Below, piece after piece: positions 49,973 through 50,179 of a stretch of DNA of 51,912 nucleotides. Source of the stretch: a virus (Duplodnaviria > Heunggongvirae > Uroviricota > Caudoviricetes); IMG/VR virus record IMGVR_UViG_2718218100_000010, one strand, 5' to 3'. Made by a program: the position numbers and the translations under genes. Positions within the stretch are counted from its first letter, which is position 1; every line of letters begins with the position of its first letter. Under the pieces are notes generated by a model, which saw only the letters and a list, made by a program, of their open reading frames with translations, did not search any database and was not told the origin of the DNA.

Positions 49973-50179
49973 ATGACAAAAACTTTGAGATATGACGATG
50001 TTAAACCATGTCCGTTTTGTGGTTGTCCATCAGTAACGGTGAAAGACATTTCATGATATTACCGGGCAAAATGCAACGGATGCGAATCCCGAACTGGCTA
50101 TGGTGGAAGTGAAAAAGAAGCGCTCGAAAGATGGGATAAACGAACCACTGAAAATATTAATGGAGGCGTTCATGTATAA
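49973..50179 (+). pseudogene. ralR: ralR/lar (restriction-alleviation) interrupted by an in-frame TGA at codon 28
   Basis: MTKTLRYDDVKPCPFCGCPSVTVKDIS then TGA at 50054-50056; the same frame continues YYRAKCNGCESRTGYGGSEKEALERWDKRTTENINGGVHV to TAA at 50177-50179. Confidence 0.5.

Follow-up and report, generated by a model that had tools for sequence, protein, structure and literature searches.

Rac-type prophages carry a type I toxin gene, ralR, and the copy in this prophage is very probably a null allele that has lost its function. A single G-to-T transversion at position 50054 of the window, by which we mean the whole stretch of 51,912 nucleotides that was analysed, has converted the GGA codon of Gly24 into UGA, such that translation would end early and the product would comprise only the N-terminal part of the protein. 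The antitoxin RNA RalA with its seed, the overlapping rcbA gene and the target site, which the stop has placed in untranslated RNA, are all untouched, which would leave a toxin-less remnant with an orphan antitoxin. The mutation would represent a recent event of single origin, followed by spread via prophage transfer or recombination. According to Guo et al. (2014; PMC4041452), RalR is a non-specific DNase toxin whose type I antitoxin is the sRNA RalA. The features of the locus are located in the window as follows:

49985..50179, plus strand: ralR (lar) pseudogene, 195 nt, with the RefSeq limits given to identical alleles
50054..50056, plus strand: premature TGA; G to T at 50054 turns GGA (Gly24, K-12 numbering) into a stop; the next base is T
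50107..50122, plus strand: RalA target site in ralR, 3' of the stop and so now in untranslated RNA
50172..50360, plus strand: rcbA (ydaC), intact DUF1187 open reading frame (Pfam PF06688, E=8e-39)
50178..50356, minus strand: RalA antitoxin sRNA (Rfam RF02694), full length and intact
50279..50294, minus strand: 16-nt seed of RalA, RalA nucleotides 63-78, UGCUUCUUUUUUACCU, identical to K-12
46526-49126: recE, 866 aa

The interrupted ralR frame

Translation of positions 49973-50179 on the plus strand yields MTKTLRYDDVKPCPFCGCPSVTVKDIS, a stop, YYRAKCNGCESRTGYGGSEKEALERWDKRTTENINGGVHV and a second stop, the TAA at 50177-50179 that ends the ralR frame. The coordinates that the first-pass annotation had assigned to the TGA and the TAA, as well as the in-frame continuation between them, were confirmed by sequence and translation. 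The start annotated by RefSeq is the TTG at 49985, which matches the ATG start of the 64-aa K-12 protein. Four codons upstream of this TTG and in frame with it lies an ATG (49973), so that the N-terminus could be longer by four codons; the frame between this ATG and the RefSeq start is open in K-12 too, i.e. in both haplotypes. Counted from ATG 49973, the stop is thus codon 28, which corresponds to codon 24 in the K-12 numbering, and the encoded peptide has 23 residues, or 27 if the upstream ATG is used.

When the stop is replaced by Gly, the frame matches the Pfam family PF14354 (Lar_restr_allev) with 50.8 bits (E=2e-13), the family cut-off being 28.6 bits. The match covers residues 9-58 of the repaired frame and profile positions 2-58 of 58 and runs across the stop, indicating that the ralR frame is not a product of chance. 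By contrast, the N-terminal fragment alone reaches 23.9 bits, which is below the cut-off of 28.6, and covers profile positions 2-18 of 58. Thus, the repaired frame is a full-length member of the Lar family, whereas only profile positions 2-18 are translatable in the gene as encoded. The truncated peptide retains the first Cys knuckle (CPFCGC) only, while the second Cys pair (CNGC) is left untranslated, such that ralR here lacks an uninterrupted open reading frame of ~64 codons with both Cys pairs (CxxC...CxxC). With a TGA at codon 24, this copy of ralR is a pseudogene of the RalR/Lar family rather than a functional member. Its earlier identification as ralR stands, but the accompanying label "anti-restriction" is the older one, the product now being regarded as a type I DNase toxin (PMC4041452; RefSeq naming). 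A PDB sequence search for a structural relative of RalR returned chance-level matches only, the best of which were unrelated CbpD chains (E=0.004).

Comparison with two intact alleles and K-12 over positions 49930-50400 (471 nt) traced the interruption to one base. The window is identical to the intact ralR-rcbA allele of SJ7 at 470 of 471 nt, with the G-to-T change at 50054 as the sole difference, and across the 195-nt ralR gene the two again differ only at nt 70 (G to T). This bears out the initial reading, in which one substituted nucleotide interrupts a ralR gene that is otherwise intact. None of the intact homologues carries a natural stop here; codon 24 specifies Gly in K-12, SJ7 and 13P484A alike, and the site falls within the Pfam domain. 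Relative to K-12 ralR there are 15 differing positions plus the stop that interrupts the toxin frame at codon 24, and the gene begins with TTG here but with ATG in K-12. Nine codons differ synonymously and five non-synonymously between K-12 and the repaired allele, which indicates that an intact ralR is normally kept open. In sum, the substitution creates a stop relative to a functional allele, it is present reproducibly, and no restart codon follows it.

Given that a single base separates this allele from an intact one, a sequencing or assembly error, with G as the true base at 50054 and an intact ralR, had to be considered. However, among 5,426 complete E. coli genomes, 14 that were sequenced independently (USA, Canada, Germany, Australia, Russia and other sources) contain an exact match to the 61-mer with the TGA at its centre, and a further 116 genomes match it within one to three bases. 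In addition, the change is a substitution and not of the homopolymer-length type, so that an error, which the first-pass annotation had named as a possible objection, can for practical purposes be set aside. Six carrier records were opened (O157:H7 2571, AUSMDU00002545, O45:H2 FWSEC0003, 2013C-3264, 13E0725 and SCPM-O-B-9504), and in all six RefSeq calls ralR a pseudogene with the remark "internal stop", under the product name type I toxin-antitoxin system endodeoxyribonuclease toxin RalR. The allele, hereafter G24*, is thus already present as a ralR pseudogene in the public (RefSeq) annotation, in line with the pseudogene reading first proposed for this frame.

The loss of toxicity is a well-founded inference, since residues 41-46 of RalR, which were found to be needed for toxicity in the M2 mutant (PMC4041452), lie downstream of the stop. 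From this published mutant and the domain architecture, no DNase toxin would be expected from the truncated RalR. Toxicity could nevertheless persist in attenuated form if the stop were leaky, either by read-through of the UGA with near-cognate tRNA-Trp or by selenocysteine recoding, both of which would supply some full-length RalR. Of the E. coli stop codons, UGA leaks the most, the frame after it is perfectly preserved in this allele, and RalA has been kept. However, the preservation of the downstream frame is explained equally well by the recency of the mutation, and the retention of RalA by the overlapping rcbA open reading frame together with recency. UGA followed by U is an efficient termination context in E. 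coli, and the base after the stop is indeed a T. Furthermore, no SECIS or other Rfam recoding element was detected at E<=1 in positions 48900-51000, and a SECIS-type hairpin just after the UGA was found neither by this Rfam search nor by a shuffle test of positions 50054-50113, in which the 60 nt from the UGA onward fold with -9.4 kcal/mol (z=+0.91) and 166 of 200 shuffles were as good. A leaky stop is therefore very unlikely.

The two halves of the gene still lie in one frame, and the first-pass annotation had raised a split two-peptide product as an option, in which the N-terminal 23-27-mer and a C-terminal 40-mer would jointly restore function. Against this, there is no in-frame ATG, GTG or TTG in positions 50057-50176, where the sole near-cognate codon is an ATT at 50156, seven codons before the end, and the ORF listing contains no frame of at least 20 aa in the ralR frame after the stop. 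Moreover, the predicted four-Cys ribbon would be distributed over two chains. A functional split gene is therefore highly improbable.

RalA, its target site and rcbA

The antitoxin gene scores 218.2 bits against the Rfam model RF02694 (gathering score 170) over model positions 1-179 of 179, and 177 of its 179 nt are identical to K-12 RalA, with both changes located near the 3' end. The 16-nt seed and target, as defined by Guo et al. (PMC4041452), were mapped directly onto the window. Of the 16 positions of the target (50107-50122), 15 pair with RalA nt 63-78, two of them as G:U. The resulting duplex contains 10 contiguous Watson-Crick pairs with a G:U on either side, as compared to 11 contiguous pairs in K-12, the target site here ending in a G that forms a G:U pair. 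A prediction with RNAduplex for the whole of RalA against the whole ralR mRNA gave an unrealistic end-to-end pairing and was discarded. RalA antitoxin activity has been reported to depend on Hfq (Guo et al., 2014; PMC4041452). On the minus strand, a sigma-70-like promoter match is found at 50395-50422 (TTGACG, a 16-nt spacer and AATAAT; 10 of 12 positions), ~32 nt upstream of the RalA 5' end as placed by Rfam and by Guo et al.

On the opposite strand, rcbA runs antisense to RalA, and its start overlaps the TAA of ralR. The encoded protein (WP_001302840.1) is common to the carriers of G24*, the intact strains and the O157:H7 Sakai-type strains. The gene has a ribosome-binding site of its own, GGAGG at 50162-50166, 5 nt before the ATG, and the 115-nt stretch that the TGA leaves untranslated contains 32 G and 20 C. 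Because of this separate GGAGG and a predominance of G over C, which makes the stretch a poor Rho substrate, we infer that the stop exerts little polarity on rcbA and that a strong polar effect is absent. Between the K-12 and G24* haplotypes, the ralA/rcbA stretch shows 2 differences in 179 nt and ralR 15 in 195 nt. The low divergence of the former fits a double constraint, with an sRNA encoded on one strand and the DUF1187 open reading frame on the other. Judged by its sequence, the locus is a ralR pseudogene beside a functional-looking ralA.

Prophage context and history of the allele

The gene order around the pseudogene is recE-recT-ralR-rcbA(DUF1187)-xisR-intR-ttcA, as in K-12 Rac, whose arm is annotated in MG1655 with intR, xisR, rcbA with ralA antisense, ralR, recT and recE. 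Thus, the prophage is of the Rac type and lies at ttcA, its int-proximal arm carrying ralR with recT on one side and rcbA/ralA on the other, and the locus and gene order are the same as for the RalR/RalA system of K-12 (ralR b1348, ralA b4714; PMC4041452). The host elements differ, since the window comprises a full-length lambdoid prophage of ~52 kb with tail, portal and terminase-sized open reading frames, whereas K-12 Rac is a 23-kb remnant. The end of intR coincides exactly with the end of the window, and the closest match of the window is to strain AUSMDU00002545 (99.8% over the right-hand 24.9 kb). The prophage also encodes other sRNAs at the Rfam gathering level, namely AgvB (anti-GcvB), STnc100, a sok antitoxin of the hok/sok type, and isrK together with C4 antisense RNA, as well as a cluster of tRNA-Arg(tct), tRNA-Arg(tcg) and tRNA-Met(cat); the sites listed for the additional small RNAs and the tRNA cluster are 31531-31785, 33152-33401, 36454-36628 and 44840-45028.

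Of the 5,426 complete E. coli genomes, 1,921 contain the ralR-rcbA segment. Seven of the 15 copies of G24*, i.e. the window and six of the 14 genomes, differ from one another by 0-3 nt in the ralR-intR segment (1,928 nt, up to the end of intR), while the nearest intact allele is 8 nt away from the G24* haplotype in this segment. All carriers compared over these 1.9 kb therefore share one ralR-intR haplotype, which points to a single mutational origin, and G24* most likely arose once. Since the allele has not decayed any further from its intact sister, the event is recent.

By contrast with this shared haplotype, the recE-recT arms of the carriers (~46500-49985 in the window; positions 3400-6960 in the carrier segments) fall into two haplotypes that differ at 286 positions in 3.5 kb, with a recE of 866 or 890 aa. 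The association of two different recE-recT arms with the same ralR-intR haplotype indicates that a recombination junction lies at ralR or immediately upstream of it. The chromosomal flanks of the carriers (ttcA to dgcM) are of at least four types in a distance table that was compiled without K-12; the flanks of two carriers lie within 5-6 nt of an O157:H7 Sakai-type strain, and the flank of the O45:H2 strain is identical to that of SJ7. From these comparisons, the dead allele has moved between E. coli backgrounds by prophage transfer or recombination, and its spread over several backgrounds shows that RalR is dispensable for keeping and spreading the prophage.

The occurrence of the allele in several host backgrounds might also be taken as a sign that the N-terminal peptide has acquired a separate role, for instance as a regulatory or dominant-negative micropeptide, and that the allele is under selection. 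However, the allele is rare (14 of ~1,921 ralR-bearing genomes) and exists as one haplotype in which secondary adaptation is not apparent, the score of the peptide is below the threshold of the Pfam family, and hitch-hiking on a mobile prophage arm suffices to account for the spread. A functional micropeptide is accordingly highly improbable.

A search of phage records yielded six records with 92-94.5% identity, none of which contains the G24* haplotype. In one record, PP818812.1, described as "Actinobacillus phage vB_Apl-pPE4", positions 314-711 match the ralR-rcbA segment of E. coli Rac with 92% identity, and the host label is unexpected for a sequence of Rac type.

A second nonsense allele and the fate of the toxin-antitoxin pair

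A second interrupted ralR, termed W50*, was encountered in the Sakai-type O157:H7 strain RIMD 0509939 (NZ_AP046301.1; 6836-6985 of the segment examined), where TGG is changed to TGA at nt 150 on a K-12-type backbone. Its exact 61-mer is found in 310 of the 5,426 complete genomes, so that W50* is much commoner than G24*. The two alleles are alike in that one substituted base creates the stop in ralR, RalA and rcbA are intact, and the EHEC prophage concerned is located at ttcA. Unlike G24*, however, W50* is an independent event, by which the protein loses no more than its last 15 residues and retains both CxxC pairs. RefSeq (PGAP) lists its 49-aa product (WP_001443846.1) as RalR protein and not as a pseudogene, suggesting that some truncation of the C-terminus may be tolerated, although G24* removes far more. 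Among the papers searched for ralR pseudogenes in O157, none describes G24* or W50*.

The existence of two such alleles raises the question of whether Shiga-toxigenic or poly-lysogenic E. coli have lost the RalR DNase repeatedly and under selection. This is improbable, and two events provide no statistical support. If it were true, a toxin that cuts DNA would fire the SOS response and thereby induce resident lambdoid or Stx prophages, while the retained RalA could act as an anti-addiction guard against incoming Rac-like phages. Loss of a DNase toxin that is favoured in lineages bearing Stx phages would then be of moderate interest.

For annotation, the 27-codon open reading frame that starts at ATG 49973 should not be called a gene, and strains with the G24* prophage should be scored as RalR-negative and RalA-positive in toxin-antitoxin inventories. 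More generally, the locus exemplifies how a type I pair can lose its toxin half while the antitoxin RNA persists, and the position of RalA antisense to rcbA may help to preserve the antitoxin.
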